Assembly (NCBI GenBank): GCA_019326865.1
Contig: GCA_019326865.1_4101.1
Reading direction: 5' to 3' (one strand)
Source of the DNA: a phage
DNA: 64,000 nucleotides
Shown: positions 15,631 through 60,060 of the stretch, piece after piece
How the letters are laid out: each line of letters begins with the position of its first letter
Position numbering within the stretch: the first letter of the stretch is position 1
Translations under genes and position numbers: made by a program
Notes under the pieces: model-generated
Database searches by the model: none
The model's input: only the letters and a program-made list of their open reading frames with translations
Told to the model about the DNA's origin: nothing

Positions 15631-16725
15631 ATGAATTTTATTATTCTGTTAATACCTTCTCTAATTGTAGTATTCGTTATGAAATACATGTACGATAAGC
15701 ACATCAGTACTAAAGAATTGATGATTCATATTGGTTGTTGTGTATTAGGTGCTGCTCTTGTACTTGGGATTTCATATGCAATTAATTACAGCCAACTATA
15801 TGATGTAGAGATTTTAAATGGACAAGTAACATCAAAATACAATCATAAAGAAATTTGTACACAATCAAGTTCATGTAAGCACTATACATGGCATGAGAAG
15901 TGTCACACACGATATGATAGCAAAGGTAAATCACATCGTGAGTGTGAATCATATAAAGTATTTGATTACTCATATGAAGTTGATTGGTATGTGAAAAGTA
16001 CAGTAGGTGTGTTTGTGATTGAACGTGTAAACCGTCAAGGCACAATGACACCACCACGTTGGCAACAAGTTATGATTGGTGACTATGCAGCAGCAGAAAG
16101 TTCATATATCAACTATCTATTTGCTGATAAGAACTCATTGTTTAGTCCAGCAGAAATACACAACATGTATGATGAAAAGTATCTTAGTACTATTCCAGAA
16201 TACCCAAGTGTAGTTGATTATTATAAAACCCATCATGTAATTAACACTACAAATTACAACGTTGATGGTTACGATGAATACCTTCGTAATGAGCTAAAAA
16301 CTATGGGTACACGTAAGCAGGTAAACATCCAAGTTCTGGTGTATAATTACAAAGATAGTGATTTTGTTGCTGCAACTCTTGCAAAGTGGCGTGGTGGTAA
16401 GAAGAATGATGTTATTATGTTCTTTGGTATTGATAATGATGGTAATGTTGTTAAATTCAACAGTACCTCATTTGCACAAGGTATGAAGAATGAAGAGTTA
16501 CATGCAAAGATGCGTATTGATGCATTAAATGAAAAATTAACTCTTGACTTACTATCCAAAGAAGTGCATAATATTGATACACAGTTCGAGAGACTCTCTA
16601 ATAAAGAGTTTGAGTACCTATCAGTAAAAATGGAACCTAGAAAAGATGTTCTTATTGGTGCTTCCATTGTATTGTTGATTCTGTCTATTTTCATTGGCCT
16701 TTATATGAGGGATAACAAATTATGA
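15631..16725 (+). CDS. membrane protein (N- and C-terminal TM helices)
   Basis: 364 aa; hydrophobic segments at both ends. Confidence 0.55.
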   Translation: MNFIILLIPSLIVVFVMKYMYDKHISTKELMIHIGCCVLGAALVLGISYAINYSQLYDVEILNGQVTSKYNHKEICTQSSSCKHYTWHEKCHTRYDSKGKSHRECESYKVFDYSYEVDWYVKSTVGVFVIERVNRQGTMTPPRWQQVMIGDYAAAESSYINYLFADKNSLFSPAEIHNMYDEKYLSTIPEYPSVVDYYKTHHVINTTNYNVDGYDEYLRNELKTMGTRKQVNIQVLVYNYKDSDFVAATLAKWRGGKKNDVIMFFGIDNDGNVVKFNSTSFAQGMKNEELHAKMRIDALNEKLTLDLLSKEVHNIDTQFERLSNKEFEYLSVKMEPRKDVLIGASIVLLILSIFIGLYMRDNKL

Positions 16726-17276
16726 ATGGTAAAATTTTTGCGTTGATTGGTATTGTAGTTGTTGTAGGTCTGATGATGATTGGTGCTGTCAGTATGTATG
16801 TTGATACACATGACCGTGCAGTTGAATTCGAAGGTAACATTAAAAAGTACAATGACGCGTCCGAAAGCCAACTGAGTACCTACACTCTTACAATTCAAGA
16901 AAAGGTACAAGTTTCTGATAAGTACAAAGATGCATTGAAAGAAACAATTGAATCATACTTTAAAGGACGTGAAGGTGTTGACCAAAAATTCGTAATGTCA
17001 CAAATCCAACAACAGGTTCCAAATCTCGATCCTAAGATTTATCAGGAACTAATGGCTACAATTGAATCAGGACGTAATAAGTTCAACAATCTTCAGAAAA
17101 TGAAAATTGATCAGTGTACTGATTATGCAAAGTTCCGTAAAGGTTTTTGGAATTCCAGAGTTCTTGATAAAGATATTTTCCCAGGTAAAGAAATTGAACA
17201 TCTATGTACTGTAGTTTCTGATATACGTACTAAGAAAGCAATGGATACTGGTATTCAAGAAGTAATTAAACTATAA
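16722..17276 (+). CDS. membrane-anchored protein (N-terminal TM)
   Basis: 184 aa; N-terminal hydrophobic helix IFALIGIVVVVGLMMIGAV. Confidence 0.55.
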   Translation: MNGKIFALIGIVVVVGLMMIGAVSMYVDTHDRAVEFEGNIKKYNDASESQLSTYTLTIQEKVQVSDKYKDALKETIESYFKGREGVDQKFVMSQIQQQVPNLDPKIYQELMATIESGRNKFNNLQKMKIDQCTDYAKFRKGFWNSRVLDKDIFPGKEIEHLCTVVSDIRTKKAMDTGIQEVIKL

Positions 17277-17285
17277 TTAAATGTT

Positions 17286-17310
17286 GGGGGTACTTTGTAC
17301 CCCCTTTTCT
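17286..17310 (+). terminator. rho-independent terminator
   Basis: GGGGGTAC tttg TACCCCC followed by TTTTCT. Confidence 0.6.
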
Positions 17311-17910
17311 ATGGGATGTACTATGTTTTTAAAAAATACTTATGAATTGATTAAAATGCTTCATCAAATGAAGAAAGGTAGTTTATTTCCCTATTACTCT
17401 GAGGATGAAACACATCGTTTAGTCCTTAAATTGGATGAAACTGGACGTATTATATCATTAAGAACACCAGTTCCGAGTGTGGAAACAGTAATTACACAAT
17501 CAACTCAAAATTCAGGAACTGCTATTAAAACGCCACAAGCATACAACTCTAATTACCAACAACCACAAATGTACACGATTAGCACTCCACCTATTAGACG
17601 AGTTGCTTGTATTGTGAATATAAAAGTATCTAAGGACTTTGATGATTTAATATCAGTTGAATGGTCAGAACTAACATCATCATTAACAAACAACGGGCTT
17701 GTAGTGACAAATGCAGGTATAATGCACAACAACAAAGAAGGACAGCAGATAATGAGTGCGTTATATCTTAGTAATGGTTATGTTATCATCAACGGTAAGT
17801 TGTATAGCGATACTGATCCTATTGCATTCACTGAAGATTTGGTTGGTGACAAAGAATACAGCATTCTTGAAATTATGAATTTAAAAAAGGTGTATGAAAA
17901 CCGTGATTAG
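17311..17910 (+). CDS. hypothetical protein
   Basis: ORF; start moved to ATG 17311 downstream of terminator hairpin. Confidence 0.5.
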   Translation: MGCTMFLKNTYELIKMLHQMKKGSLFPYYSEDETHRLVLKLDETGRIISLRTPVPSVETVITQSTQNSGTAIKTPQAYNSNYQQPQMYTISTPPIRRVACIVNIKVSKDFDDLISVEWSELTSSLTNNGLVVTNAGIMHNNKEGQQIMSALYLSNGYVIINGKLYSDTDPIAFTEDLVGDKEYSILEIMNLKKVYENRD

Positions 17911-18475
17911 ATTTCAACAAGATGATTTGCCATTTATTCAAGAACTAGAAGAACAGGTAATAAGTATTATGGATGAAATTAGTACTTGGGATATAACAGT
18001 GTTTCGAAATGTATATGATAATGTGGTAAATTTTAAAAATGTTAATATTGAAGTAAAACATAATAATTTTTACTTAACAAAACGATTCATTTTGACTCGT
18101 CCTGGTACAAAGCCAGAGAAACGTAATTTGTCATTTGGACGCCTAGTTGGTACAGAACAGGTACATGAAGACTGGATTGACTCCATCTATTCGTATACAA
18201 AAGAGCTTATTCCTGATATTGAGAAAAGATATTATCTTAGTATCACATTAGATGAAAACGGAAATCTTAATGCGTATTCGATAAATTCTTCTTCAAATGT
18301 TCCATTACATTCAATGACGATTGGTGACAAAAAATTACTAATAAATTCTGAAACATGGTACAATAGAGAAAATTTCGCAGCAGAATCATTTCAGTACTCT
18401 GTATCTGAACCTAAGTCACCTTTTGATATAGTGTTTGTAAGTAATATTCTTTTACGTTTTGGTGTAGGAGTGTAA
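17894..18475 (+). CDS. hypothetical protein
   Basis: ORF 193 aa. Confidence 0.5.
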   Translation: MKTVIRFQQDDLPFIQELEEQVISIMDEISTWDITVFRNVYDNVVNFKNVNIEVKHNNFYLTKRFILTRPGTKPEKRNLSFGRLVGTEQVHEDWIDSIYSYTKELIPDIEKRYYLSITLDENGNLNAYSINSSSNVPLHSMTIGDKKLLINSETWYNRENFAAESFQYSVSEPKSPFDIVFVSNILLRFGVGV

Positions 18476-18478
18476 TTT

Positions 18479-18832
18479 ATGCTAATTTATTTAAGTGTTA
18501 TTGTGATTTCATTACTGGTATCATTCGCTGTTCTTAAAATTGTTGCTATTTGTAGAAGTAAGATTGATAGTTTTGAAACTAGATCAGTACTTGACTTGAT
18601 TATGGACCATCCTAAAATCTGTGGTATTATTGTATTATTCGTTGTACTGATTAATACATATATTGTCAGGGAACATTTATATAATATGTATGATTGTAGT
18701 GTGCGTTCTATTTCACAAGGTGTTGAAACAGACTATAGTTGGTACTATGAGAAATGTCGATTTAAAAACCAGCATGGTATTTGGGTTGATTTTGATAAAC
18801 TACGTGGAACACCTTCAGGAGAAGAAGAATAA
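18479..18832 (+). CDS. small membrane protein
   Basis: 117 aa; two hydrophobic segments. Confidence 0.5.
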   Translation: MLIYLSVIVISLLVSFAVLKIVAICRSKIDSFETRSVLDLIMDHPKICGIIVLFVVLINTYIVREHLYNMYDCSVRSISQGVETDYSWYYEKCRFKNQHGIWVDFDKLRGTPSGEEE

Positions 18833-47052: not shown

Positions 47053-47508
47053 ATGTTTAAAAATTTTATTGTTATTGTAGCAGTACTGTTTGGTGCATCA
47101 TGTTTTATTTCCCCTGTACATGCAGAAGAACAACGACAAACAATTAAAACAATCGGTACTGGTAAAACTCCACCTAAACGTACTGCTGAAGAATATATGC
47201 CTGAGATGCGTGAACGTTATCGCCAGACATATAGGGAAAAACATGCAAATGATAAACCAATCAAGAAACACAAATGGGAAGTCGTTAAATCACCTTCATT
47301 TTGTGCTGGATATGCTAAAGTAAAAGTTGAGCAACACAAAAACCAGTACTACAAAGATATGTATTATTTCTATAACTCCAGAATCTCAGACACTGATATG
47401 ATGGCAGGGAAAGTTAACAAAGAAGAGTTTCTTCAAGGTTATGATATGATGGATGATGATAAGATTATGGAATGTGTGGAAGTATATGAGAAATACAGAG
47501 GGTTCTAA
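47053..47508 (+). CDS. secreted protein (N-terminal signal peptide)
   Basis: 151 aa; signal-like MFKNFIVIVAVLFGASCFISPVHA then charged mature region. Confidence 0.5.
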   Translation: MFKNFIVIVAVLFGASCFISPVHAEEQRQTIKTIGTGKTPPKRTAEEYMPEMRERYRQTYREKHANDKPIKKHKWEVVKSPSFCAGYAKVKVEQHKNQYYKDMYYFYNSRISDTDMMAGKVNKEEFLQGYDMMDDDKIMECVEVYEKYRGF

Positions 47509-47978
47509 TGCTAACAATGGTATTATTATCAAGCCCGTTTGCTTATTTTATTCTGTATAATATTTTTAGTAATGCTCATCATTTTAAATACGCACAAACA
47601 ATTGCAAAACATGAAGGATTTTGGAATTTTTTTCCAGCGTTATTATGTTCCTATCAATATCATGAACGCTATTTTATATTTCCAGAATATCAAAACTATG
47701 CATATGATTCTAAAGTAAATGCATTGATTGAGTACTGCATAAGAAACTATTTGAATAATAGTAATGATAATGTTCAGATACTAATAGGAAATGGTAGGAT
47801 TCCAAGAATAGTTTTTATATCTGATATACAAGACCCGATTTACTTATATCTATATGAATATAGTATCAAGGCTGGTGGTCCTATGCACGGAAGTAGATCC
47901 ATGTATGATTACTTCATATTGCCACCAACGCATATCAGGCTAATAGAAAAATACTTAAAAAATATTGACAAAAAATGA
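47508..47978 (+). CDS. hypothetical protein
   Basis: ORF 156 aa. Confidence 0.5.
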   Translation: MLTMVLLSSPFAYFILYNIFSNAHHFKYAQTIAKHEGFWNFFPALLCSYQYHERYFIFPEYQNYAYDSKVNALIEYCIRNYLNNSNDNVQILIGNGRIPRIVFISDIQDPIYLYLYEYSIKAGGPMHGSRSMYDYFILPPTHIRLIEKYLKNIDKK

Positions 47979-47994
47979 TTAGTAGTATTATAAT
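47965..47994 (+). promoter_or_regulatory. sigma70-like promoter (TTGACA-18-TATAAT)
   Basis: Consensus hexamers upstream of ORF 48027. Confidence 0.45.
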
Positions 47995-48026
47995 CATAAT
48001 ACCATCTAACCAAAGAGGAATGGAAA

Positions 48027-48485
48027 ATGGACGTATTAGCTACCAACTTCAAACGTAATACTGAAGAACGTGAAGGATATCTTAGTATTAATGATGTAGT
48101 TGCCGACAATTTTAAACAATACATTTTTAATAGTGCAATTAAATTAAAATGCACAAAAGATGCACCTGACCGTAGTTTTACTAAATGGATTGCATACTGG
48201 GAAGATTCCCCTATTGCAATTGAAATGACAGTCATTACTACTGTTCTTGAAACTGGTTACATTAAAGCAATTGTAGTTGATAAAAAAGTTCACACACTAG
48301 ATGAAATTAATCCATATCCAGCACGAAACTCTAAAGTTTTTGGTGTATTAGTTGATGGTAAATTTATGATAGAAAAAGATGCAAAGGAATATGTAATTAA
48401 CAAACTTCAATCTACGGCAGAAAAAAAAGAAGTGGTGGACCAAAACTCAGTTGATGCAATTAAAAAAGCATGGGGATTGAACTAA
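48027..48485 (+). CDS. hypothetical protein
   Basis: ORF 152 aa. Confidence 0.5.
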   Translation: MDVLATNFKRNTEEREGYLSINDVVADNFKQYIFNSAIKLKCTKDAPDRSFTKWIAYWEDSPIAIEMTVITTVLETGYIKAIVVDKKVHTLDEINPYPARNSKVFGVLVDGKFMIEKDAKEYVINKLQSTAEKKEVVDQNSVDAIKKAWGLN

Positions 48486-48486
48486 T

Positions 48487-48906
48487 ATGTTCACACTAAG
48501 TAATACAAAATATCTTTTTCTTATTAGTATTATTGGTTGGGTTATGGCTCCAGTGCTAAATGCACTGGGGTTTCCAGATGAACACAAACTTGTCATCGTT
48601 TCAGGCGTAATTCAGGGTATTTCATGGTATACATTGATTATATTTTCAGTGTGCATCAATACATTTGCCCGTGATTATCGACGTTTTTTATATCTGAAAG
48701 TATTTGGAACTACACGATACAGTTTTGTTTATACTTTTATTTTAGTACCGTGCATGTTATATGCATTTGTATTTGATTACTATACATACCTATGGGTATG
48801 TGGAACTATGTTTGTCATGTTGGAATATATCAGAACAGTGCAAAATTCATATGCTGACGAGTATTATGATTTAGAAGTTAAACGACAATTAACGGAGATA
48901 AACTAA
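48487..48906 (+). CDS. integral membrane protein
   Basis: 139 aa; about 4 hydrophobic helices. Confidence 0.5.
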   Translation: MFTLSNTKYLFLISIIGWVMAPVLNALGFPDEHKLVIVSGVIQGISWYTLIIFSVCINTFARDYRRFLYLKVFGTTRYSFVYTFILVPCMLYAFVFDYYTYLWVCGTMFVMLEYIRTVQNSYADEYYDLEVKRQLTEIN

Positions 48907-49331
48907 TGAGAGCGTATAATAAGATTTGTATTTTTGTATTTTTAGTTTGTGCATTCAATTCATTTGGATACTACTGCATCGAAAACAACATTTCATATGG
49001 TTTAAATCCGTTATGGTTTTCAATTGCCAATGTAGTACAAATAAGTATTGCTGTTTTAGCCGCACTTATGTTCTGTCCAATTGTCACAATAGATAGTGAA
49101 TATGAAAAGCTTGGATTTCTACGTGATACGGGAGATGAACCTTACAATAAATGGTTAGTATTGTATCCATTTTTAATGATGCTAGGTATTAATATTCAAT
49201 TAGGTGCAACAACCAATAGTATTACATCAGCAGCCATTGCTGTATTTGCATTCACATTTTTAACGATTCACCGCTCAATATGTCATTGGCACATTACAAA
49301 AATGGCAGAGGAAGGTACTCAAAATACTTGA
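48906..49331 (+). CDS. integral membrane protein
   Basis: 141 aa; about 4 hydrophobic helices. Confidence 0.5.
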   Translation: MRAYNKICIFVFLVCAFNSFGYYCIENNISYGLNPLWFSIANVVQISIAVLAALMFCPIVTIDSEYEKLGFLRDTGDEPYNKWLVLYPFLMMLGINIQLGATTNSITSAAIAVFAFTFLTIHRSICHWHITKMAEEGTQNT

Positions 49332-51874: not shown

Positions 51875-51881
51875 AGAACAA

Positions 51882-51910
51882 GGGTTGACTTAGGTCAGCC
51901 CTTTTTTTAT
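51882..51910 (+). terminator. rho-independent terminator (GGGTTGAC ttag GTCAGCCC + T7)
   Basis: Member of 3-copy terminator family (also 60001, 62796). Confidence 0.7.
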
Positions 51911-52974: not shown

Positions 52975-53763
52975 ATGAGCACTATAGATGAACTGATTCG
53001 ACGGAATTCAAAATACTACAAACCATCAGAAATTGTAGGTAACATTACCAAATCAGAGTTTGGTCCAAATACTCGAAAACTAATTCATGTAATGTCACGT
53101 GATGGCTTTAAATGTGATTGTTGTGGTGCATCCAATGTGGTATTCACTTTGCATAAGCACAGTTCTAAAGACCGTTATAAATTCAGACCTTATGTACTTA
53201 AAGGGAAACGCCTTGTACGCATGACGTTAGACCATAATGTACTGGACTGTCTTCAGGGTGGTAATGATAAAGAGAACATGACTGCATTATGTGAAGATTG
53301 TAACGCATTACGCCAACATAAGTTTGCTGAGTACAGTGAGTTTAAACACTGGTATCATAATGCGGATCGTTCAATCGAGCCGAACGTTAACTACTGCTTC
53401 ATTGAGTACATTAAGAATGCTAAAGATACACATATTCTTAAATCTATGGAACCAATTACCGTGTTTCCAATGAACCTATTCACTACATTAAAGAATAGTT
53501 TTATGGTAGGTGATATTGATGCATTCAAGTATTTTGACAAAGGTGCAAAACATTTTGAAGTTCAATGTCTTAGTACTGCACTATGTGAACTTATTAAAAT
53601 TTACATAAAAGATTATTTGGGTATTGACAATGTACGCGTACCAGAGTATACTTTTTCTATTGATTTCGATTGTGAATCAATCAAAGAGTTTGGGATTCTT
53701 TTCAATAAACAAATAGAACTTGCAATTCAAAACGAAATCAAGTACTATAATACTAACATTTAA
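52975..53763 (+). CDS. HNH endonuclease
   Basis: 262 aa; CDCCG..(H)..TLDHNVLDCLQGGNDKENMTALCEDCNALRQH (HNH core with Cys pairs). Confidence 0.7.
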   Translation: MSTIDELIRRNSKYYKPSEIVGNITKSEFGPNTRKLIHVMSRDGFKCDCCGASNVVFTLHKHSSKDRYKFRPYVLKGKRLVRMTLDHNVLDCLQGGNDKENMTALCEDCNALRQHKFAEYSEFKHWYHNADRSIEPNVNYCFIEYIKNAKDTHILKSMEPITVFPMNLFTTLKNSFMVGDIDAFKYFDKGAKHFEVQCLSTALCELIKIYIKDYLGIDNVRVPEYTFSIDFDCESIKEFGILFNKQIELAIQNEIKYYNTNI

Positions 53764-53778
53764 TCAGAGGAAATTATT

Positions 53779-53961
53779 ATGCAAATCATCATTCTTATCG
53801 TAGGTATCATTCTTGGTGTATATGGTCACTCCTGGATGAACGAGAAGTTCCCTAATACCCGTCCTGAGTATTGCAGCACTAATGTATTTCAGAATGGTGA
53901 GAAACCAAAGGAAAGTATTGGTAAAAAGCTGGACAAAGTACTTGACGTAATCAATGAATAA
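53779..53961 (+). CDS. small membrane protein
   Basis: 60 aa; N-terminal hydrophobic helix. Confidence 0.4.
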   Translation: MQIIILIVGIILGVYGHSWMNEKFPNTRPEYCSTNVFQNGEKPKESIGKKLDKVLDVINE

Positions 53962-53970
53962 GGGTAAAGT

Positions 53971-54171
53971 ATGTTTAAATCAAATACCAATGTTGGTAAG
54001 AAGGTTCAATTACTTGAGGATGTATCCACCTTGAGTGGAATTTTCCCAAGAGGTCACATCATGACTATTATTGCCGAAACATACCGTGGGTGGGATTTGG
54101 AAGATGCTGATGGTAATCGCATCCTTGAGGCTGGATTCTATGGTCATCGTGAATATAAAATCATTGATTGA
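53971..54171 (+). CDS. hypothetical small protein
   Basis: ORF 66 aa. Confidence 0.45.
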   Translation: MFKSNTNVGKKVQLLEDVSTLSGIFPRGHIMTIIAETYRGWDLEDADGNRILEAGFYGHREYKIID

Positions 54172-54265
54172 GGATGCAAACGTGACTTTAGAGATTGTCT
54201 TTGGTATTGTTAGCTTAGTCGTCTGTGTGGGTTGGTTTGGATATATGATGATATTTGGTGACTAA
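54140..54265 (+). CDS. possible small hydrophobic peptide (41 aa)
   Basis: Internal ATG of ORF 54071..54265; hydrophobic C-terminus. Confidence 0.25.
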   Translation: MVIVNIKSLIEDANVTLEIVFGIVSLVVCVGWFGYMMIFGD

Positions 54266-54268
54266 TAC

Positions 54269-54296
54269 TTGACATAAGATATCAGTACTGTATAAT
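54269..54296 (+). promoter_or_regulatory. sigma70-like promoter (TTGACA-16-TATAAT) with ATCAGTACTG in spacer
   Basis: Same family as tRNA-region promoters. Confidence 0.5.
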
Positions 54297-54389
54297 GTTT
54301 ATATCAAAGGGAATGCAGTGAAAGGAAAGACAACATAATCGTACTCGTCACTGCGTTCCCACTCTTTTAAATTAATTAAGGAATTAACT

Positions 54390-54698
54390 ATGTTTCAAAC
54401 TAACACTCAAGGTTTTGTAATCATTGATTTGAATCAAAACAGCGGTAATTGGATGAAACCTACTGACGCATGTATGCAGTTTGATTTCTTAGGTTACAGA
54501 ATTAGTGTAAGTACTGGTGCTTCTGTACTGAGGGGTGGTTGTATCGTTGAACATCTGGTAACTGATCCAGAAGGTCGTGAGTATGAAATCGCAGGTTCAG
54601 TACAAGATGCCATTATGTTTGTATGTCAGCGTGAAATGAATGGTTCGAATTCAAATGCACTGACTCATGCTCTTTCTCAAGAAGTGGAGGTTCGTTAA
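54390..54698 (+). CDS. hypothetical protein
   Basis: ORF 102 aa. Confidence 0.5.
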   Translation: MFQTNTQGFVIIDLNQNSGNWMKPTDACMQFDFLGYRISVSTGASVLRGGCIVEHLVTDPEGREYEIAGSVQDAIMFVCQREMNGSNSNALTHALSQEVEVR

Positions 54699-54949
54699 TG
54701 AAATACATTGTAGCAGTACTCGTCGCATTTTTACTCACTGCATGTGATGCTTCAACCAAAGAACGCACAAGTGATTTTGAACTCCCTACTGAATTAAAAG
54801 AAGCAGGATGTAAGATTTATCGTATGCAACAGGAAGGTGCTGGTGCAACGTTGTATACAGTTTATTGTCCTAATGCAAACACCAGTACTGGATACACTAG
54901 CGGAAAAACACGAATCAACACTTCAGTGATTAATGGAGTACAACAATGA
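54698..54949 (+). CDS. putative lipoprotein
   Basis: 83 aa; signal + lipobox LLTAC. Confidence 0.5.
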   Translation: MKYIVAVLVAFLLTACDASTKERTSDFELPTELKEAGCKIYRMQQEGAGATLYTVYCPNANTSTGYTSGKTRINTSVINGVQQ

Positions 54950-55314
54950 GCCTTGATACAACCCGTGCAACAGATTTATTCACTCGTCTGAATGATGAAG
55001 AATATCTTGCTGAAATAAAGTACAAGCTTGAAAAACTGGCTCGAAGTGCTGAAGTAATTGAAGTTAAAGGTCATTTACCAATGGATCAATTCCATACGTT
55101 CAAAGAAGATATGGTTTATTATCCAAATGAAATTTGGATTGAGTGGGAACATTGGACTAACAAAACTCTACGCATTGAAGGTTATTGTGTGAATTATGAA
55201 TCTGAACCTGGTGATGTTACAAAAACTCTCTCCATTTGGTGTACAAAAACACATGAACTAGTTGAGGTGAATTTGAATTATATGAAAGGTTTCCGTTGGG
55301 GTGATATTCAATGA
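54946..55314 (+). CDS. hypothetical protein
   Basis: ORF 122 aa. Confidence 0.5.
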   Translation: MSLDTTRATDLFTRLNDEEYLAEIKYKLEKLARSAEVIEVKGHLPMDQFHTFKEDMVYYPNEIWIEWEHWTNKTLRIEGYCVNYESEPGDVTKTLSIWCTKTHELVEVNLNYMKGFRWGDIQ

Positions 55315-55586
55315 TTAAAAAACTATTGACAGTTGTCTTTGTATTCTGTACAATGTTTCTTACAGCATGTAATGATGACGGCAGGTTTAGTGCAAAAGAC
55401 TTAGTTCGTCAGGATTGTACATTCACAGGTAAGTCTTTTATTAACGAGTATGAGGTATGTACACAACCAGGCCGTATCTGTGGTGCTTGGGAAAAACGAC
55501 AGGAGCGATTGTATGTATATGAATGCCCTGGACATCTCAACAAAGTAATAAGTACTCACAAACTTGTTTATGATAAGGTTGAATAA
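55311..55586 (+). CDS. putative lipoprotein
   Basis: 91 aa; signal + lipobox FLTAC. Confidence 0.5.
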   Translation: MIKKLLTVVFVFCTMFLTACNDDGRFSAKDLVRQDCTFTGKSFINEYEVCTQPGRICGAWEKRQERLYVYECPGHLNKVISTHKLVYDKVE

Positions 55587-55801
55587 TGACTACAAATGAA
55601 ATGATGCAGGTTATTTGGGATAAAGGTTGTGATATTAAAATCACTAGTACTGATGTTCGTGTGTTCAAAACTGAATACCTAGAGTACTTGGACCTTGATA
55701 CTTATAATAATATTGTAGCAATTGAACACAAAGGTGCAGTACTTGAAACTATTGATGTAGTTCTGAAGAAAGCAACAGACCTATTAGGTTCGTCAGTGTG
55801 A
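55586..55801 (+). CDS. hypothetical small protein
   Basis: ORF 71 aa. Confidence 0.45.
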   Translation: MTTNEMMQVIWDKGCDIKITSTDVRVFKTEYLEYLDLDTYNNIVAIEHKGAVLETIDVVLKKATDLLGSSV

Positions 55802-55941
55802 ATAATAAAGAGTGGGAAGAATACCGAAAAAAATGCCGAGAGTTTGATAAAGAACTCACAGGTACAGTGAACGCGGTAATGTGGGTATCTGCAATTATTG
55901 CAGTACTTGGTTTGGGTGCTATTATTAATAAATTATTCTAA
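55798..55941 (+). CDS. possible small membrane protein (47 aa, GTG start)
   Basis: C-terminal hydrophobic helix; below ORF-track cutoff. Confidence 0.3.
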   Translation: MNNKEWEEYRKKCREFDKELTGTVNAVMWVSAIIAVLGLGAIINKLF

Positions 55942-55949
55942 GGACTAAT

Positions 55950-56150
55950 ATGTTTACTTTATATCTTGCAGTAGCACTAACTAATGGTGAAATCACTCGC
56001 ACCGTTGGTGAAGGTGTATATAATACACCTGAGCAGTGTTACTCTGCGACTCATTGGCCTAGTGATGCTGGTGATAACACTCGCACTGAATACAAATGTA
56101 TGAAGGTTAAAGGTGACTTTGTAAATCTAAAGATTATTGAGACTAAGTAA
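55950..56150 (+). CDS. hypothetical small protein
   Basis: ORF 66 aa. Confidence 0.45.
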   Translation: MFTLYLAVALTNGEITRTVGEGVYNTPEQCYSATHWPSDAGDNTRTEYKCMKVKGDFVNLKIIETK

Positions 56151-56668
56151 TGGATATTAATGAGTTGTTGAACTTATTGTTTAATCGTGAACTCCGCGAT
56201 ACAAGAACAATTGAATATCAAGATGTGATACGTATTGAAACTGATTTTTGTTATGGTAAAACAACTCATGATCTTTTGAATCCATCTGGAAAACGCTATG
56301 CTGATGTTTGTTTTTCTGAAAGAAGTGATGGTTCAGAAATAACAAGTACTGAAATTGTGTTTTATGATAGATCCTCGGCTGGTTCGTATGAAATAGAACT
56401 TATATATTGTCCTTGTTCAGAAACACACAATAAACGTCAGATATTATATGATGTTTATTCACCTCCAGGTATTGCTGAATATTTTGTTATTGATTACAGT
56501 ACTGAAGAAAGTGTGTTTCAACAGAGCTTGATTTATAACTTCCAGTTGAATGATCCATTAGTACCGAAGATTTTCAAACTACTTGACACAATCGATGTTG
56601 AATTTGAATTTGTTATGTGCATTAGAACTTCCTTATTCAATGAATTTGTGGAACTTTTTAATATATGA
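56150..56668 (+). CDS. EExFFQ-motif family protein
   Basis: 172 aa; TEESVFQQSLIYNF. Confidence 0.55.
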   Translation: MDINELLNLLFNRELRDTRTIEYQDVIRIETDFCYGKTTHDLLNPSGKRYADVCFSERSDGSEITSTEIVFYDRSSAGSYEIELIYCPCSETHNKRQILYDVYSPPGIAEYFVIDYSTEESVFQQSLIYNFQLNDPLVPKIFKLLDTIDVEFEFVMCIRTSLFNEFVELFNI

Positions 56669-56886
56669 ATAGATACTATGTTGTGTATGAACACGTTTCT
56701 GAATTTAATAACATACGAGGTTATTCCAGAGTTGTCACAAAGATGGATGTATTCATACGTGCTCTTAGTGAAGTAGAGGCACTGTTTAAATTGTTTGATG
56801 AAATTACAAAGTATAACACACTCAAAACACACCGCTATGTGGAAACTGTACATAGCATTATGCTAACTGAAAGTGAGGAGGAATGA
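56665..56886 (+). CDS. hypothetical small protein
   Basis: ORF 73 aa. Confidence 0.45.
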   Translation: MNRYYVVYEHVSEFNNIRGYSRVVTKMDVFIRALSEVEALFKLFDEITKYNTLKTHRYVETVHSIMLTESEEE

Positions 56887-56889
56887 TAA

Positions 56890-57108
56890 ATGAATTTATA
56901 TCTTGTTGAAGGATTGGTACAAGTCTATAAACCTGAAGGTGAAGGGCAACGTTTTTTGTATGTAGAAGATTTTAAGTATGTTGTAAAGGCATCTTGTCAA
57001 AGCGATGTTGAAATTCAAGTTCGAGAATCATTTCGTAATAAGAATGCAATTGGAAAATTCAAATATCAGCACTTACAATTCAAAGTATGGCCTAGCTTAA
57101 ATGACTAA
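56890..57108 (+). CDS. hypothetical small protein
   Basis: ORF 72 aa. Confidence 0.45.
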   Translation: MNLYLVEGLVQVYKPEGEGQRFLYVEDFKYVVKASCQSDVEIQVRESFRNKNAIGKFKYQHLQFKVWPSLND

Positions 57109-57316
57109 GATGTGGTGGTGTCATGGTGTCTATAACGTGTATGTAAATGGTCAATATAAAATGTCTAGTACCTATGCTAGACGTGTCCATGCGAACAATA
57201 AAGTTGATGCTGCATGTGAGATTATTGAGTGGTATGCTGAGTTCAATACATTTGATTATATGTACGAAATAGTTACAATAAATGTTGTACAAATTGACAC
57301 GTCTCTGATACAATAA
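57101..57316 (+). CDS. hypothetical small protein
   Basis: ORF 71 aa. Confidence 0.45.
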   Translation: MTKMWWCHGVYNVYVNGQYKMSSTYARRVHANNKVDAACEIIEWYAEFNTFDYMYEIVTINVVQIDTSLIQ

Positions 57317-57347
57317 CTACATCAAAAAAACTGCAACTGAGGATACT

Positions 57348-58010
57348 ATGTTAGTAAATCTTAATTTCATCACTTCTCCTGATTGGGCATTACGTGGTGT
57401 TTCTTTGAACTTTAAAGAAACTAATTTCGACTACATTGGGGATTGTACTTTAGTTAATGCTACATTTGATCCTCATCATCCTTTTTGGGCTAAGATTCAT
57501 GATCCTAATGTAAACAATAGTGTATCTGTTATGACTATTGTACAGACGAAATATCCTGGCATTCTCGCAGGTGACCATCCTAAAGTTGCAATTAATCATT
57601 TCACTGATTATGATGTAGTAGATGAGTATCCAATGATTCATGAAGATGGAAGTTTATACACATCTGAAGACGTTCGTGCTATCTTTAATAGTACTGATGA
57701 TATTCTACCAAGTGGACGAGCACGTCCTAAGTCTTATCTTATGCATTCATCTTATGGTGTAGCAGATACGCTTGAGCAGATTATGAAGAAGTACAAGAAC
57801 CTAATTGAAGGTCCAGAAGAAGTTGTCATGTGCTATCATCCAGTACTGAAGTCTGAGCAACCAAAGGATGGTGGTTGGCGTTGGCATAAGAATGGTGATT
57901 ATATCGGTACGAAACGAAGTAAAGAACGTTTTGAGTACTTGTATGATGAGCCAGATGTTGATGTGGTTTTGTGTTATAATTTTATTAAGGTGAAAAAGAA
58001 ATGTATCTAG
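57348..58010 (+). CDS. hypothetical protein
   Basis: ORF 220 aa. Confidence 0.55.
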   Translation: MLVNLNFITSPDWALRGVSLNFKETNFDYIGDCTLVNATFDPHHPFWAKIHDPNVNNSVSVMTIVQTKYPGILAGDHPKVAINHFTDYDVVDEYPMIHEDGSLYTSEDVRAIFNSTDDILPSGRARPKSYLMHSSYGVADTLEQIMKKYKNLIEGPEEVVMCYHPVLKSEQPKDGGWRWHKNGDYIGTKRSKERFEYLYDEPDVDVVLCYNFIKVKKKCI

Positions 58011-58243
58011 TACTAAGTTTTGTTGTTGCACTATTGTTTATGTTTTACCCTACACTGGTAGCACTAGCTACAAGACGAACAGTTGGCGATATCACAACAG
58101 TATTCTTGTTAAACGTGGTTCTGGCACTAGTGTCTATTATAATCCCAGTAAACCCCAATGTTATTGACATGGTAACAGTATTTCTCTTTGTATTCAGTTA
58201 TCTTATTCTTATCGATGAAAAACCTGTTGACAAACAATCTTAG
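58001..58243 (+). CDS. small membrane protein
   Basis: 80 aa; two hydrophobic helices. Confidence 0.45.
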   Translation: MYLVLSFVVALLFMFYPTLVALATRRTVGDITTVFLLNVVLALVSIIIPVNPNVIDMVTVFLFVFSYLILIDEKPVDKQS

Positions 58244-58254
58244 TGCTGTATAAT
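58227..58254 (+). promoter_or_regulatory. sigma70-like promoter (TTGACA-16-TATAAT)
   Basis: Spacer contains TAGTGCTG; overlaps 3' end of ORF 58001. Confidence 0.45.
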
Positions 58255-58295
58255 AGTTCTTGAAATGTAAAAACTTAAATATGAGGGTATAAAAT

Positions 58296-58616
58296 ATGTT
58301 ATCAGTATTGTTTTCAATTCCATCTTTAATTCTAATTTGGATTATTGTGTATGAATGTTTTATTGTAGATGATACGGAGAAAAAAGAATTCAATGAGTTA
58401 TTCATGCTTGATACGCCAGTTGTCCGCATTTTCTATTCTGTAGTTATCGTTTCAGTACTTGCATGGATTGTAAGTTTTATCTTTCCAATGGGTATGATCA
58501 TTAATGTGTTGAATTTGGTTGAAAACACTATTGCTATTCTATGGCTAATTAAAGCGTGGTATTCAGGAAATGTTAATATTTGGATTGATATTATTAAATC
58601 TAAATTTACAAAATAA
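58296..58616 (+). CDS. integral membrane protein
   Basis: 106 aa; 3 hydrophobic helices. Confidence 0.5.
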   Translation: MLSVLFSIPSLILIWIIVYECFIVDDTEKKEFNELFMLDTPVVRIFYSVVIVSVLAWIVSFIFPMGMIINVLNLVENTIAILWLIKAWYSGNVNIWIDIIKSKFTK

Positions 58617-58656
58617 GATGTAACAAGTAATAGTGAAACAACCTAGTTATTATTAA

Positions 58657-58694
58657 ATACTTCTGTACATACATATAGTACAGAAGTATTTCTT
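58657..58694 (+). terminator. hairpin plus T-rich tract
   Basis: ATACTTCTGTAC (9-nt loop) GTACAGAAGTAT followed by TTCTT. Confidence 0.5.
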
Positions 58695-58708
58695 AGTAGA
58701 GGTTTGTT

Positions 58709-59068
58709 ATGAATACTTATATAAAATTAATAGCACTTACTTGCTTGTTATTGTCTTTTTTTAGTTACGGTTCGTCATCTGAAACACAATGTCGTAGTAC
58801 TAATGGAACGATGTATTCATTAACTAACGATCCCGGAAATGGTAAAAATATTGTTATCAATGGTGAAACTTATCGTTTTAAAGTGCAAAGCATTATTGGT
58901 AATAAAAAGATAACGACTTATATTAATGATTCTGGGACACTTGCAAATGTTATATTAATTGTTAATCCAAAAACAGGTAGTGGTGATATCTATATAGTAA
59001 TTTATTTAGATTCAGCACAACAACGAGAATTAGATATAGATGAATTAAATCTTCATTGCAAAATATAG
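58709..59068 (+). CDS. secreted protein (signal peptide)
   Basis: 119 aa; N-terminal hydrophobic signal-like segment. Confidence 0.5.
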   Translation: MNTYIKLIALTCLLLSFFSYGSSSETQCRSTNGTMYSLTNDPGNGKNIVINGETYRFKVQSIIGNKKITTYINDSGTLANVILIVNPKTGSGDIYIVIYLDSAQQRELDIDELNLHCKI

Positions 59069-59078
59069 GGTATAAAAT

Positions 59079-59456
59079 ATGATAGATTCTATGGTAATTG
59101 GGTTGATAAGTATTCCATTTATTTTGTCTTTTATAATTTCCATATGCATGATTGTGTATTTTATATTTGCTGGAATGTATTTTGTTTTAACAAACAAGTA
59201 TATTTTCATTTCTAAGCTTGATTCAATATTTGCATGTGAAACTTTAGCTTACAACTTATGGATAATCTGCTCTAGTATTATGGGATTGACTTACCTTTTA
59301 TATAAATTTGATTTTATTAATGCAAATATTGTATATATTAGTGCTGGATTAGCATTATATCCTGCTACATGGTACTTGATTTATGTTGTGGACATATGGT
59401 ATAGTACTTACAAAGAATACCAGTGTAAAAAATCATCAAAAGTTGAGGGGAAATGA
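59079..59456 (+). CDS. integral membrane protein
   Basis: 125 aa; multiple hydrophobic helices. Confidence 0.5.
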   Translation: MIDSMVIGLISIPFILSFIISICMIVYFIFAGMYFVLTNKYIFISKLDSIFACETLAYNLWIICSSIMGLTYLLYKFDFINANIVYISAGLALYPATWYLIYVVDIWYSTYKEYQCKKSSKVEGK

Positions 59457-59809
59457 TTATGAAAATTATCTTGTTTTTTGTATCTATGTTATTATGCGGA
59501 TTTGTATATGCTGAACCACTCGAAGGCTTAGTTTGCACTGACGGACAAATCAAACATATCTATCAAGGTGATAGTTATGATCATGATATTGTTTATATTG
59601 ATGGTCAACAATATAACTTTGTTAAAGAGCATACTATTGGCGACATTAGCTTCAATGAGTTTTCAAACGATGAAGACCCTAACGCATTGGCATTTATGGA
59701 AGTTGATTTGTATGAAGATAGTAATGGTACACAATATGCTAAACTTGTTATGATGCGTCGTGGTGCTAAAGAAACAAGTTTCGGTGGTTTATGTAAATAT
59801 AAGGATTAA
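59453..59809 (+). CDS. secreted protein (signal peptide)
   Basis: 118 aa; MIMKIILFFVSMLLCGFVYA signal-like. Confidence 0.5.
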   Translation: MIMKIILFFVSMLLCGFVYAEPLEGLVCTDGQIKHIYQGDSYDHDIVYIDGQQYNFVKEHTIGDISFNEFSNDEDPNALAFMEVDLYEDSNGTQYAKLVMMRRGAKETSFGGLCKYKD

Positions 59810-59814
59810 TTATT

Positions 59815-60006
59815 ATGCTGATTTATCAATGTGATAATATTCGTGTTCTACAACATCCTTATCTTCAAATCTTTCATGTTCAGATGTTTATGGAAGGTGA
59901 TAATCCGAGAACTTATGAACGCACATATGATTATTTCACGGTCAAAGAGTGCGACAACATCGATGAAGTACGACGATTAGTACATGAACTCCAAAACAAA
60001 GGTTGA
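59815..60006 (+). CDS. hypothetical small protein
   Basis: ORF 63 aa. Confidence 0.45.
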   Translation: MLIYQCDNIRVLQHPYLQIFHVQMFMEGDNPRTYERTYDYFTVKECDNIDEVRRLVHELQNKG

Positions 60007-60025
60007 CTTCGGTCAGCCTTTTTTG
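60001..60025 (+). terminator. rho-independent terminator (GGTTGAC ttcg GTCAGCC + T6)
   Basis: Member of 3-copy UUCG-loop terminator family. Confidence 0.7.
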
Positions 60026-60060
60026 TTATAATTATTTTATATTCTAATGGAGTTTAAATT

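Follow-up and report, generated by a model that had tools for sequence, protein, structure and literature searches.

Small envelope proteins made early in infection are, to our knowledge, the least understood part of large phage genomes, and we know of worked-out mechanisms of superinfection exclusion for just a handful of phages. The imm and sp genes of T4 occupy different loci. Two exclusion lipoproteins anchored in the cytoplasmic membrane, Ltp (Streptococcus phage TP-J34) and TrbK (plasmid RP4), block incoming DNA, and T5 Llp and Cor (of T1, phi80 and HK022) are outer-membrane lipoproteins that are made during lytic growth and block FhuA. The cor and llp exclusion factors are encoded beside receptor-binding-protein genes (PMC11990801), and Llp is described as targeted to the outer membrane (bioRxiv 10.64898/2026.03.26.714494). 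In T4 an early protein, the alpha-helical bundle Spackle, acts in the periplasm as an inhibitor of the gp5 lysozyme (PMC7677548). Inhibitors of the MliC/PliC group are eight-stranded barrels in which a disulfide joins beta1 to beta8 and which carry two motifs, SxSGAxY in loop 4 and YxxxTKG in strand 6; Neisseria ACP has the fold and the disulfide without the motifs, yet inhibits lysozyme (PMC5507604). Here we compare these systems with a locus in a 64,000-nucleotide stretch of phage DNA (the window; GenBank assembly GCA_019326865.1, contig GCA_019326865.1_4101.1), in which an initial annotation had noted a cluster of small secreted, lipoprotein and membrane proteins at 54698-59809. We find two independent sets of non-structural genes whose products would go to the envelope of the infected bacterium. 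The first comprises lipoprotein genes 54698 and 55311 on a transcript predicted to start at the 54269 promoter, and the second is a putative self-contained operon running from the 58227 promoter to the 59998 terminator and encoding integral inner-membrane proteins (58296 and 59079) and paralogous secreted proteins (58709 and 59453). Every gene in the window is on the + strand. The features of the two sets are as follows.

54269-54296, + strand: sigma-70 consensus promoter, perfect TTGACA-16-TATAAT, ahead of 54390 and the lipoprotein stretch, kept in relatives
54698-54949, + strand: predicted lipoprotein 1, 83 aa, MKYIVAVLVAFLLTAC then DAS; lipobox LLTAC, Cys16, K2; PHROG 902 (E = 2.6e-14)
54946-55314, + strand: soluble 122-aa protein, 4-nt overlap with each lipoprotein gene
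55311-55586, + strand: predicted lipoprotein 2, 91 aa, MIKKLLTVVFVFCTMFLTAC then NDD; lipobox FLTAC, Cys20, K3 and K4; four further Cys, VY.CP motif; PHROG 31263
58227-58254, + strand: perfect sigma-70 consensus promoter of the 58296-60006 operon
58296-58616, + strand: predicted inner-membrane protein, 106 aa, 3 transmembrane helices, basic C-terminus
58709-59068, + strand: predicted secreted paralog A, 119 aa, signal peptide SYG/SSS; mature part ~98 aa, with Cys28 and Cys117
59079-59456, + strand: predicted inner-membrane protein, 125 aa, 3-4 transmembrane helices; aromatic/basic C-terminus WYLIYv.DiWY..Y..Y..KK conserved
59453-59809, + strand: predicted secreted paralog B, 118 aa, signal peptide with predicted cleavage VYA/E (VYA/EPL); mature part 98 aa
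59815-60006, + strand: soluble 63-aa protein, last gene of the operon; PHROG 6957
59998-60032, + strand: intrinsic terminator and promoter cassette, 10-bp stem (AAAGGTTGACTTCGGTCAGCCTTT) then T-run; the stem holds the -35 of the next promoter

The best match to a 6.5-kb stretch around the flagged interval is UE-S1 (94.7% identity), and all 36 phage records matched come from jumbo phages of Escherichia or Salmonella, 310-386 kb in size, that belong to the 121Q/PBECO4/phAPEC6 group (genus Asteriusvirus). By these matches the window is part of an Asteriusvirus (121Q/PBECO4/UE-S1-like) jumbo phage of E. coli of ~350 kb, and the T4-type setting assumed in the initial annotation does not apply to it. 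The papers on fEgEco12, Sharanji, UE-S1 and the BASEL collection contain nothing on these genes.

Envelope targeting was called with our own hydropathy, lipobox and -3/-1 rules together with ortholog conservation. All seven open reading frames (ORFs) of the initial annotation were recovered, coordinates included, and the targeting it had assigned to them agrees with ours. Both lipoproteins have a basic n-region and a hydrophobic h-region ahead of the LLTAC or FLTAC lipobox; among the 125 window proteins, 54698 and 55311 alone combine an N-terminal hydrophobic segment with a canonical lipobox. The two signal-peptide proteins have a basic n-region, an h-region of 14-16 residues and small residues at -3/-1, a pattern that is kept in orthologs despite sequence change. 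Proteins 58001, 58296 and 59079 each have three to four hydrophobic helices. A Shine-Dalgarno-like sequence precedes each gene of the block and the pairwise ratio of nonsynonymous to synonymous substitution rates (dN/dS) against two relatives is 0.03-0.5 (0.03-0.35 for the seven ORFs of the initial annotation), from which we conclude that, by these sequence measures, all genes of the block are real and under purifying selection. The targeting signals are invisible in two of the public records because starts are truncated or genes omitted: in UE-S1 the annotated starts of the 55311, 58709 and 59079 homologs are truncated, so that signal peptides or first transmembrane helices are lost, and the phAPEC6 annotation has no entries for the homologs of 54698, 55311 and 58709.

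The concentration of envelope genes that the initial annotation had noted in this stretch is above chance, but it is modest and splits into two unrelated parts, the lipoproteins and the membrane/secreted block. Envelope-targeted-looking genes make up 8 of 16 in the flagged interval versus 23 of 125 in the window (hypergeometric P = 0.002, with the interval chosen post hoc), and a run of five consecutive envelope genes at 58001-59809 has a permutation p of 0.015. Nine soluble-protein genes and a tail-anchored membrane ORF (55798-55941) lie between the two parts. The flagged cluster is also not the sole group of envelope proteins in the window, since N-terminal hydrophobic segments or multiple transmembrane helices also mark a run of four genes at 47053-49331 and three genes out of six at 15631-18832.

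We observe nine perfect TTGACA-N16-18-TATAAT matches in the window (14862, 30004, 31864, 32411, 46119, 47965, 49328, 54269 and 58227), all on the + strand, versus 0.23 expected by chance. This suggests that the whole 64-kb window is an early region driven by host RNA polymerase. Each of the two parts has one of these perfect promoters, and dependence on host RNA polymerase is reported for PA5oct, a related phage from the same jumbo-phage clade (PMC7318152); together these point to transcription of both parts by host RNA polymerase, most likely early. The 58227 promoter matches the consensus at 12 of 12 positions in all five Asteriusvirus relatives despite strong downstream divergence, and at 11 of 12 in Klebsiella phage K64-1. 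At the other end of the operon, the terminator element (59998-60021) is identical or one base different in all Asteriusvirus relatives, and a 24-mer of it is found identical in K64-1 (L013:8823). The promoter that follows the operon reads TTGACT-18-TATAAT with an extended -10, and its -35 hexamer TTGACT lies inside the terminator stem. A second copy of the terminator-promoter cassette, with compensatory stem changes, is present at 51880-51903.

The phAPEC6 virion proteome, determined by electrospray ionization tandem mass spectrometry (ESI-MS/MS), comprises 62 proteins (PMC7247149). None of phAPEC6 gp044c-gp063c is in that list; the annotated homologs of the block are thus absent from it, and their products are non-structural. 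The homologs of 54698, 55311 and 58709 are unannotated in phAPEC6 and so could not have been identified there.

Between its promoter and its terminator the operon encodes, in order, a three-helix membrane protein (58296), a secreted protein (58709), a membrane protein of three to four helices (59079), a second secreted protein (59453) and a soluble protein (59815). The order of secreted protein A, 59079-type membrane protein and secreted protein B (58709-59809) is kept in Asteriusvirus, in RaK2/K64-1 and in the uncultured phage L021, in which the 59079-type gene is an uncalled ORF ending CCWYIIWVIDYNW; L021 has no 58296 homolog. Ortholog alignments of 58296 and 59079 keep the hydrophobic pattern down to 20-26% identity. 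Identity to fEgEco12 is 56% for 58296, 51% for 58709, 40% for 59079 (the most divergent gene of the block) and 74% for 59453, compared with 80-98% for most neighbours and ~73% for the small ORFs 56665 and 56890. The synonymous rate is saturated in the operon, being high along with the nonsynonymous rate, and omega is 0.13-0.35. These values argue for allele replacement rather than positive selection, which we rejected as the cause of the divergence, and on this evidence the operon is an old divergent allele exchanged by recombination. It thus appears as a compact, transcriptionally isolated unit of conserved order whose divergent alleles are swapped among jumbo coliphages.

The two membrane proteins of the operon were also compared with each other, and homology was rejected (hhalign probability 0.2%). 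An identical 15-mer, AGGGTATAAAATATG, occurs at 58284-58298 and 59067-59081, the translation start regions of 58296 and 59079, and nowhere else in the window; a related RGGTATAA..ATG motif stands ahead of both membrane genes in relatives. The shared 15-mer may have survived from a tandem duplication of a gene pair, one membrane and one secreted, even though homology between the membrane proteins is not detectable.

By hhalign, secreted protein 58709 is a paralog of 59453 (probability 96%, E = 1.8e-9). Across both paralog groups and two phage genera, only Met1, Cys28, Asp41 and the C-terminal Cys are invariant. The family is tiny: an indexed search found 18 clusters, and an exhaustive profile search of 1.84 billion proteins, which gave 12 representatives, added only a few more jumbo-phage members; every one comes from a jumbo-phage-like contig. 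Profile searches of the PDB with all three protein families found nothing past the signal peptides.

The model of mature 59453 is all-beta with eight strands (predicted local distance difference test, pLDDT, 83.1; predicted template modelling score, pTM, 0.76). Its Cys 8 and Cys 94 (mature numbering) lie in the predicted strands at residues 6-10 and 88-96 (strands 1 and 8) and are kept in every full-length family member; 58709 shares both invariant cysteines. Mature 59453 is predicted to be a periplasmic eight-stranded beta-barrel with its cysteines placed for a disulfide between strand 1 and strand 8. In a fold comparison with this model, Brucella PhiA, E. coli MliC/YdhA, Brucella PliC and Neisseria ACP all ranked in the top 13. 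Like these proteins, the two secreted window proteins have ~100 residues and a signal peptide and are predicted to be periplasmic, and 59453 is modelled as an eight-stranded antiparallel barrel with cysteines in the first and last strands; ACP and PhiA, like the window barrels, are without the inhibitor motifs. Unlike MliC, PliC, ACP and PhiA, the window proteins are phage-encoded and occur as two paralogs that always adjoin a multi-helix membrane protein; sequence identity to that group is ~5%.

The first lipoprotein belongs to a much larger family. A profile search recovered 98 protein clusters of PHROG 902, all from virulent-phage-like contigs, and tblastn matched 599 phage records, including Felix-O1-like phages, CR3-like phages of Cronobacter, Pantoea and Pectobacterium, Erwinia jumbo phages, the T5-like Vibrio phage JSF12, Acinetobacter phage ME3 and ~300 Vibrio phages of ~114 kb. 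The mature domain of ~67 aa contains two invariant cysteines and the motif Y.LP..L..C.iY...l.vv.CPn...GK; the family invariants are the lipobox Cys, these two further Cys, a Pro after the second of them and a Gly-Lys pair. Of 98 members, 92 retain the lipobox Cys, and 87 of these 92 have exactly two extra Cys, and dN/dS of lipoprotein 1 is 0.06-0.19. The residue at +2 is D, E, N or Q in 79 of the 92 (D 31, E 27, N 16, Q 5; D or E in 58), and it is D in enterobacterial phages, including the window copy, whose +2/+3 pair D-A recurs in 23 family members. Asp at +2 is described as a LolCDE avoidance signal that gives inner-membrane retention in Enterobacteria (PMC5727369), and lipoprotein 1 is on that account likely retained on the periplasmic face of the inner membrane. 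Its gene is part of an array of other small early genes in every lineage examined, with DNA-metabolism genes nearby, and adjoins no receptor-binding-protein or lysis gene. In the window the start of the gene overlaps the stop of 54390. PHROG 902 is a lipoprotein family found in hundreds of virulent phages, with a sorting signal that points to the inner membrane.

The family has no current Pfam model and matches just generic LPAM_1 motifs; the precomputed tag PF16225 could not be reproduced with current Pfam and was set aside. A sequence search of solved structures found no match for lipoprotein 1, and its weak AlphaFold model (pLDDT 65) matches no solved structure. The NCBIfam TrbK model (TIGR04359) scores 16.6 bits (E = 0.0056), below its curated cutoff of 23, over residues 4-43, mainly the signal peptide. 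The protein is 100% identical to those of 121Q and UE-S1, and the adjacent 55311 is 82% identical to UE-S1 and 96% to fEgEco12, a case of fine-scale mosaicism.

The family of lipoprotein 2 is restricted to Asteriusvirus and a few other jumbo phages (Munch, SE_PL, fENko-Kae01 and JNE01), with the lipobox Cys20, Cys36 and Cys72-Pro73 invariant. Distant homologs (Munch, fENko-Kae01, JNE01) have C-D-E/D from the lipobox Cys onward, the strongest inner-membrane signal. Remote homology of the two lipoproteins through the shared VY.CP motif was considered and rejected, as hhalign aligns the signal peptide alone; on the alignments they are different families. The soluble 122-aa gene between them overlaps each by 4 nt, which suggests that it is translationally coupled with both. 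This order of lipoprotein 1, 122-aa gene and lipoprotein 2 also occurs in the divergent Asteriusvirus JNE01, and the syntenic K64-1 block is without both lipoprotein genes, which thus behave as accessory insertions.

What these two sets might do is a separate matter. The proteins fall into uncharacterised families among the early envelope-targeted accessory proteins of phages, and our preferred reading of their function, early periplasmic protection of the infected cell's envelope or superinfection exclusion, is one we put forward as possible and with real doubt. Once lipidated, the two lipoproteins would probably remain at the inner membrane, facing the periplasm, and each would form a small domain held by disulfide bonding. 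The barrels could capture and inactivate a peptidoglycan hydrolase, or block some other step in the periplasm, on which a second incoming phage relies, in a Spackle-like or MliC/ACP-like manner, and the membrane proteins together with the inner-membrane lipoproteins could block genome entry at the inner membrane in an Imm-like or Ltp-like manner. Envelope targeting, the sigma-70 promoters, absence from the virion and the Asp+2 of lipoprotein 1 all fit the exclusion or envelope-modifying role that the initial annotation had suggested; homology to a proven exclusion factor does not come with them, and an exclusion or inhibitor function of either set is speculative.

A Spackle-like role is conceivable because the gene for the group's T4-type GH24 lysozyme (LysUE1; its 121Q label is 'baseplate hub subunit and tail lysozyme') immediately follows, in the baseplate module, that for the 887-aa hub protein, an arrangement that resembles T4 gp5, so that this phage group, as in T4, encodes a T4-type lysozyme beside the hub. 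The window operon shares with T4 Spackle (gp61.3) and Imm an early-type promoter and the combination of a small secreted protein with a predicted disulfide and small inner-membrane proteins. Unlike the helical Spackle, the window barrel is modelled as all-beta and has no match to any annotated PHROG, and unlike the T4 imm and sp genes the window genes are in one operon. The lipoproteins resemble Ltp and TrbK in being small and predicted to sit on the outer face of the cytoplasmic membrane, and 54698 has the weak TrbK match. They differ in having no Ltp homology and a TrbK score below cutoff, and in that the window phages are virulent with Gram-negative hosts.

Several results weigh against protection or exclusion, and against hydrolase inhibition in particular. 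None of the seven proteins is homologous to an experimentally characterised exclusion protein, and scans of PHROG, Pfam, NCBIfam and PADLOC found no functional family, just the weak Cor and TrbK matches confined to the signal peptide. Lipoprotein 2 in the window reads C-N-D-D, with Asn rather than Asp at +2, which makes its inner-membrane location less certain than that of lipoprotein 1. Early timing comes from promoter sequence only, and no positive selection is detectable in the operon. The GH24 lysozyme is ~96% identical between UE-S1 and 121Q and the operon proteins are 66-86% identical between the same lineages, which gives no sign that the operon co-varies with the lysozyme. For the barrels, a regular-expression search of 27 secreted-family members found no SxSGAxY and a single YxxxTKG, at a non-homologous place in strand 1 of one variant, and Pfam MliC gave no match to 18 members even at E <= 10. 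The Foldseek top 50 for the 59453 model contains no PliC, and Brucella PhiA, with the same fold and disulfide, shows no inhibition in vitro (PMC8334348). The modelled fold may be a generic small up-and-down barrel. We therefore describe it as a small up-and-down barrel of MliC/calycin type, locked by a predicted disulfide, and leave hydrolase inhibition as a hypothesis. The model still offers a plausible biochemical assay, inhibition of the phage's own tail-associated GH24 lysozyme by 59453.

One alternative, which we consider unlikely but treat as a serious rival, is lysis control, with 58001, 58296 or 59079 as a holin or antiholin and the barrels as periplasmic regulators of lysis timing. 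T4 sets the precedent, in that its holin T has a partner, RI, in the periplasm; lysis genes are dispersed in T4 and other large phages, and rI of T4 has both early and late transcription. All three membrane proteins fit the generic holin profile (80-125 aa, 3-4 transmembrane helices, charged hydrophilic C-termini), their stable adjacency to a periplasmic partner would suit a holin-regulator pair, and no holin or spanin was found next to the GH24 lysozyme of the group. However, no holin, antiholin or spanin family in Pfam or PHROGs matches, the perfect sigma-70 promoter of the operon is of the early-gene rather than the late type, no endolysin or spanin lies within several kb, and RI is not a beta-barrel. 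Should the inhibitor idea fail, the operon would at present be the strongest candidate for lysis control in this phage group.

The proteins could instead take over the host's envelope or physiology without excluding other phages, again a rather improbable explanation in our judgement. The barrels would then have as their partner either a small hydrophobic ligand or a protein of the host periplasm or membrane, in the manner of lipocalins, avidins and immunity proteins, and the lipoproteins would modulate an inner-membrane machine of the host, for phage growth or against membrane-based defence. The best Foldseek match of the 59453 model is the lipocalin-like Tp0751 (E = 0.02, TM 0.58), followed by avidins and staphostatin, and the type VI secretion system (T6SS) immunity protein BtaiB is also matched. 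PHROG 902 spans phages of very different receptor use and tail type, always among early genes near DNA metabolism, a spread that favours a general host target over lineage-specific exclusion. On the other hand, we found no ligand-binding or enzyme motif and no match to a PADLOC or anti-defence family, and the proposal is too unspecific to be favoured over exclusion on present data.

Within the exclusion reading, a bolder version is that the operon is a phage counterpart, so far unrecognised, of the MliC/PliC/ACP inhibitors and that the PHROG 902 lipoprotein is a widespread inner-membrane exclusion factor; we regard this combination as a long shot. The periplasmic, disulfide-locked barrel paralogs with their dedicated inner-membrane partners would inactivate the tail lysozyme that a superinfecting phage brings, or another of its peptidoglycan hydrolases, as an independently arisen functional analogue of T4 Spackle and Imm, and the PHROG 902 factor would be common to Felix-O1-like, CR3-like, T5-like Vibrio and jumbo phages. 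If the inhibitor idea is true, periplasmic lysozyme inhibition as a means of exclusion would have arisen at least two times in phages, on unrelated folds.

Receptor blocking of the Cor/Llp type by the lipoproteins is suggested by public records, in which the fEgEco12 homolog is labelled 'lytic conversion lipoprotein' and the vB_Ec-M-J homolog 'Cor superinfection exclusion protein'. The window lipoproteins are indeed comparable to T5 Llp and Cor in size (77-91 aa), in being phage lipoproteins and in having disulfide-capable cysteines in the mature part, and 54698 weakly matches PHROG 1119 (Cor; E = 0.0046). This match covers just residues 1-48, compared with the PHROG 902 match at E = 2.6e-14. 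When the 73-member 54698 family is aligned by hhalign, the signal peptide alone aligns, over 19 columns with T5 Llp and 20 with HK022 Cor; 55311 gives no alignment with Llp and E = 3.4 with Cor. The sorting residue at +2 is Ser in Llp and Ala in Cor, both outer-membrane-type signals, as opposed to Asp in 54698, and the low-confidence 54698 model matches no solved structure. HK022 cor lies ~1 kb downstream of a J-like tail gene; in every lineage examined, the genes studied here are instead grouped with other small early genes, away from any receptor-binding-protein gene. As a homology claim, Cor/Llp identity is refuted: homology points to PHROG 902 and PHROG 31263, the labels are by these alignments signal-peptide artefacts, and we hold receptor blocking of this type to be very improbable. 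That the proteins are virion components, from a 'structural protein' label on the 59453 homolog CRJP21 gp_527, is scarcely credible, as the label has no mass-spectrometry support (the 86% identical phAPEC6 gp047c and all annotated neighbours are absent from the ESI-MS/MS virion list), 59453 has a cleavable signal peptide and a periplasm-type disulfide, both predicted, and the promoter is an early-type sigma-70 promoter.

The stretch contains further genes around the two sets, including three small membrane ORFs that the initial annotation had missed (53779-53961, 54182-54265 and 55798-55941).

53779-53961, + strand: small ORF with an N-terminal transmembrane segment
54182-54265, + strand: unannotated 27-codon ORF, single-transmembrane peptide VTLEIVFGIVSLVVCVGWFGYMMIFGD; GTG start, GAGGA 7 nt upstream
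55798-55941, + strand: 47-aa protein, C-terminal transmembrane helix (tail-anchored type), GTG start; PHROG 38271 (E = 7.6e-35); dN/dS 0.03-0.05
57348-58010, + strand: soluble 220-aa protein, head of a conserved module; stop overlaps the 58001 start
58001-58243, + strand: predicted inner-membrane protein, 80 aa, ~3 transmembrane helices; homologs in K64-1 (44% identity) and L021

The 57348 gene is syntenic in K64-1 (45% identity) and in L021; its product has no Pfam match, and a single-sequence PDB search with it was empty. Inserted after the 58001 homolog and before the next gene of the module, K64-1 (gp330, L013:4701-4961) and the uncultured relative (L021:3731-3991) have a DksA/TraR-type zinc-finger gene, and the window has none. 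Between the two sets, 55950-56150 encodes a 66-aa protein whose N-terminus is like Pfam DUF1482 (E = 4e-4, under the curated cutoff) and of which K64-1 encodes a homolog (59% identity); hydrophobicity of the N-terminal segment is mild and does not reach the transmembrane threshold used.

Upstream of the lipoprotein stretch, the 54182-54265 ORF is intact in UE-S1, fEgEco12, vB_Ec-M-J and CRJP21, with an ATG start and mostly synonymous changes, and is annotated in none of them; in phAPEC6 it contains an indel. The intergenic region in which it lies (54171-54390) has an extra ORF of ~280-295 bp in UE-S1 (L003:672-1238), vB_Ec-M-J, CRJP21, phAPEC6 and JNE01, which comes with its own second perfect or near-perfect promoter and is absent from the window and from fEgEco12; by this comparison it is an indel polymorphism of the intergenic region. 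An HNH-endonuclease-like gene further upstream (52975-53763) shares only ~47% identity with its positional counterpart, also an HNH gene, in fEgEco12 and vB_Ec-M-J, suggesting that different homing-endonuclease alleles occupy this one site.

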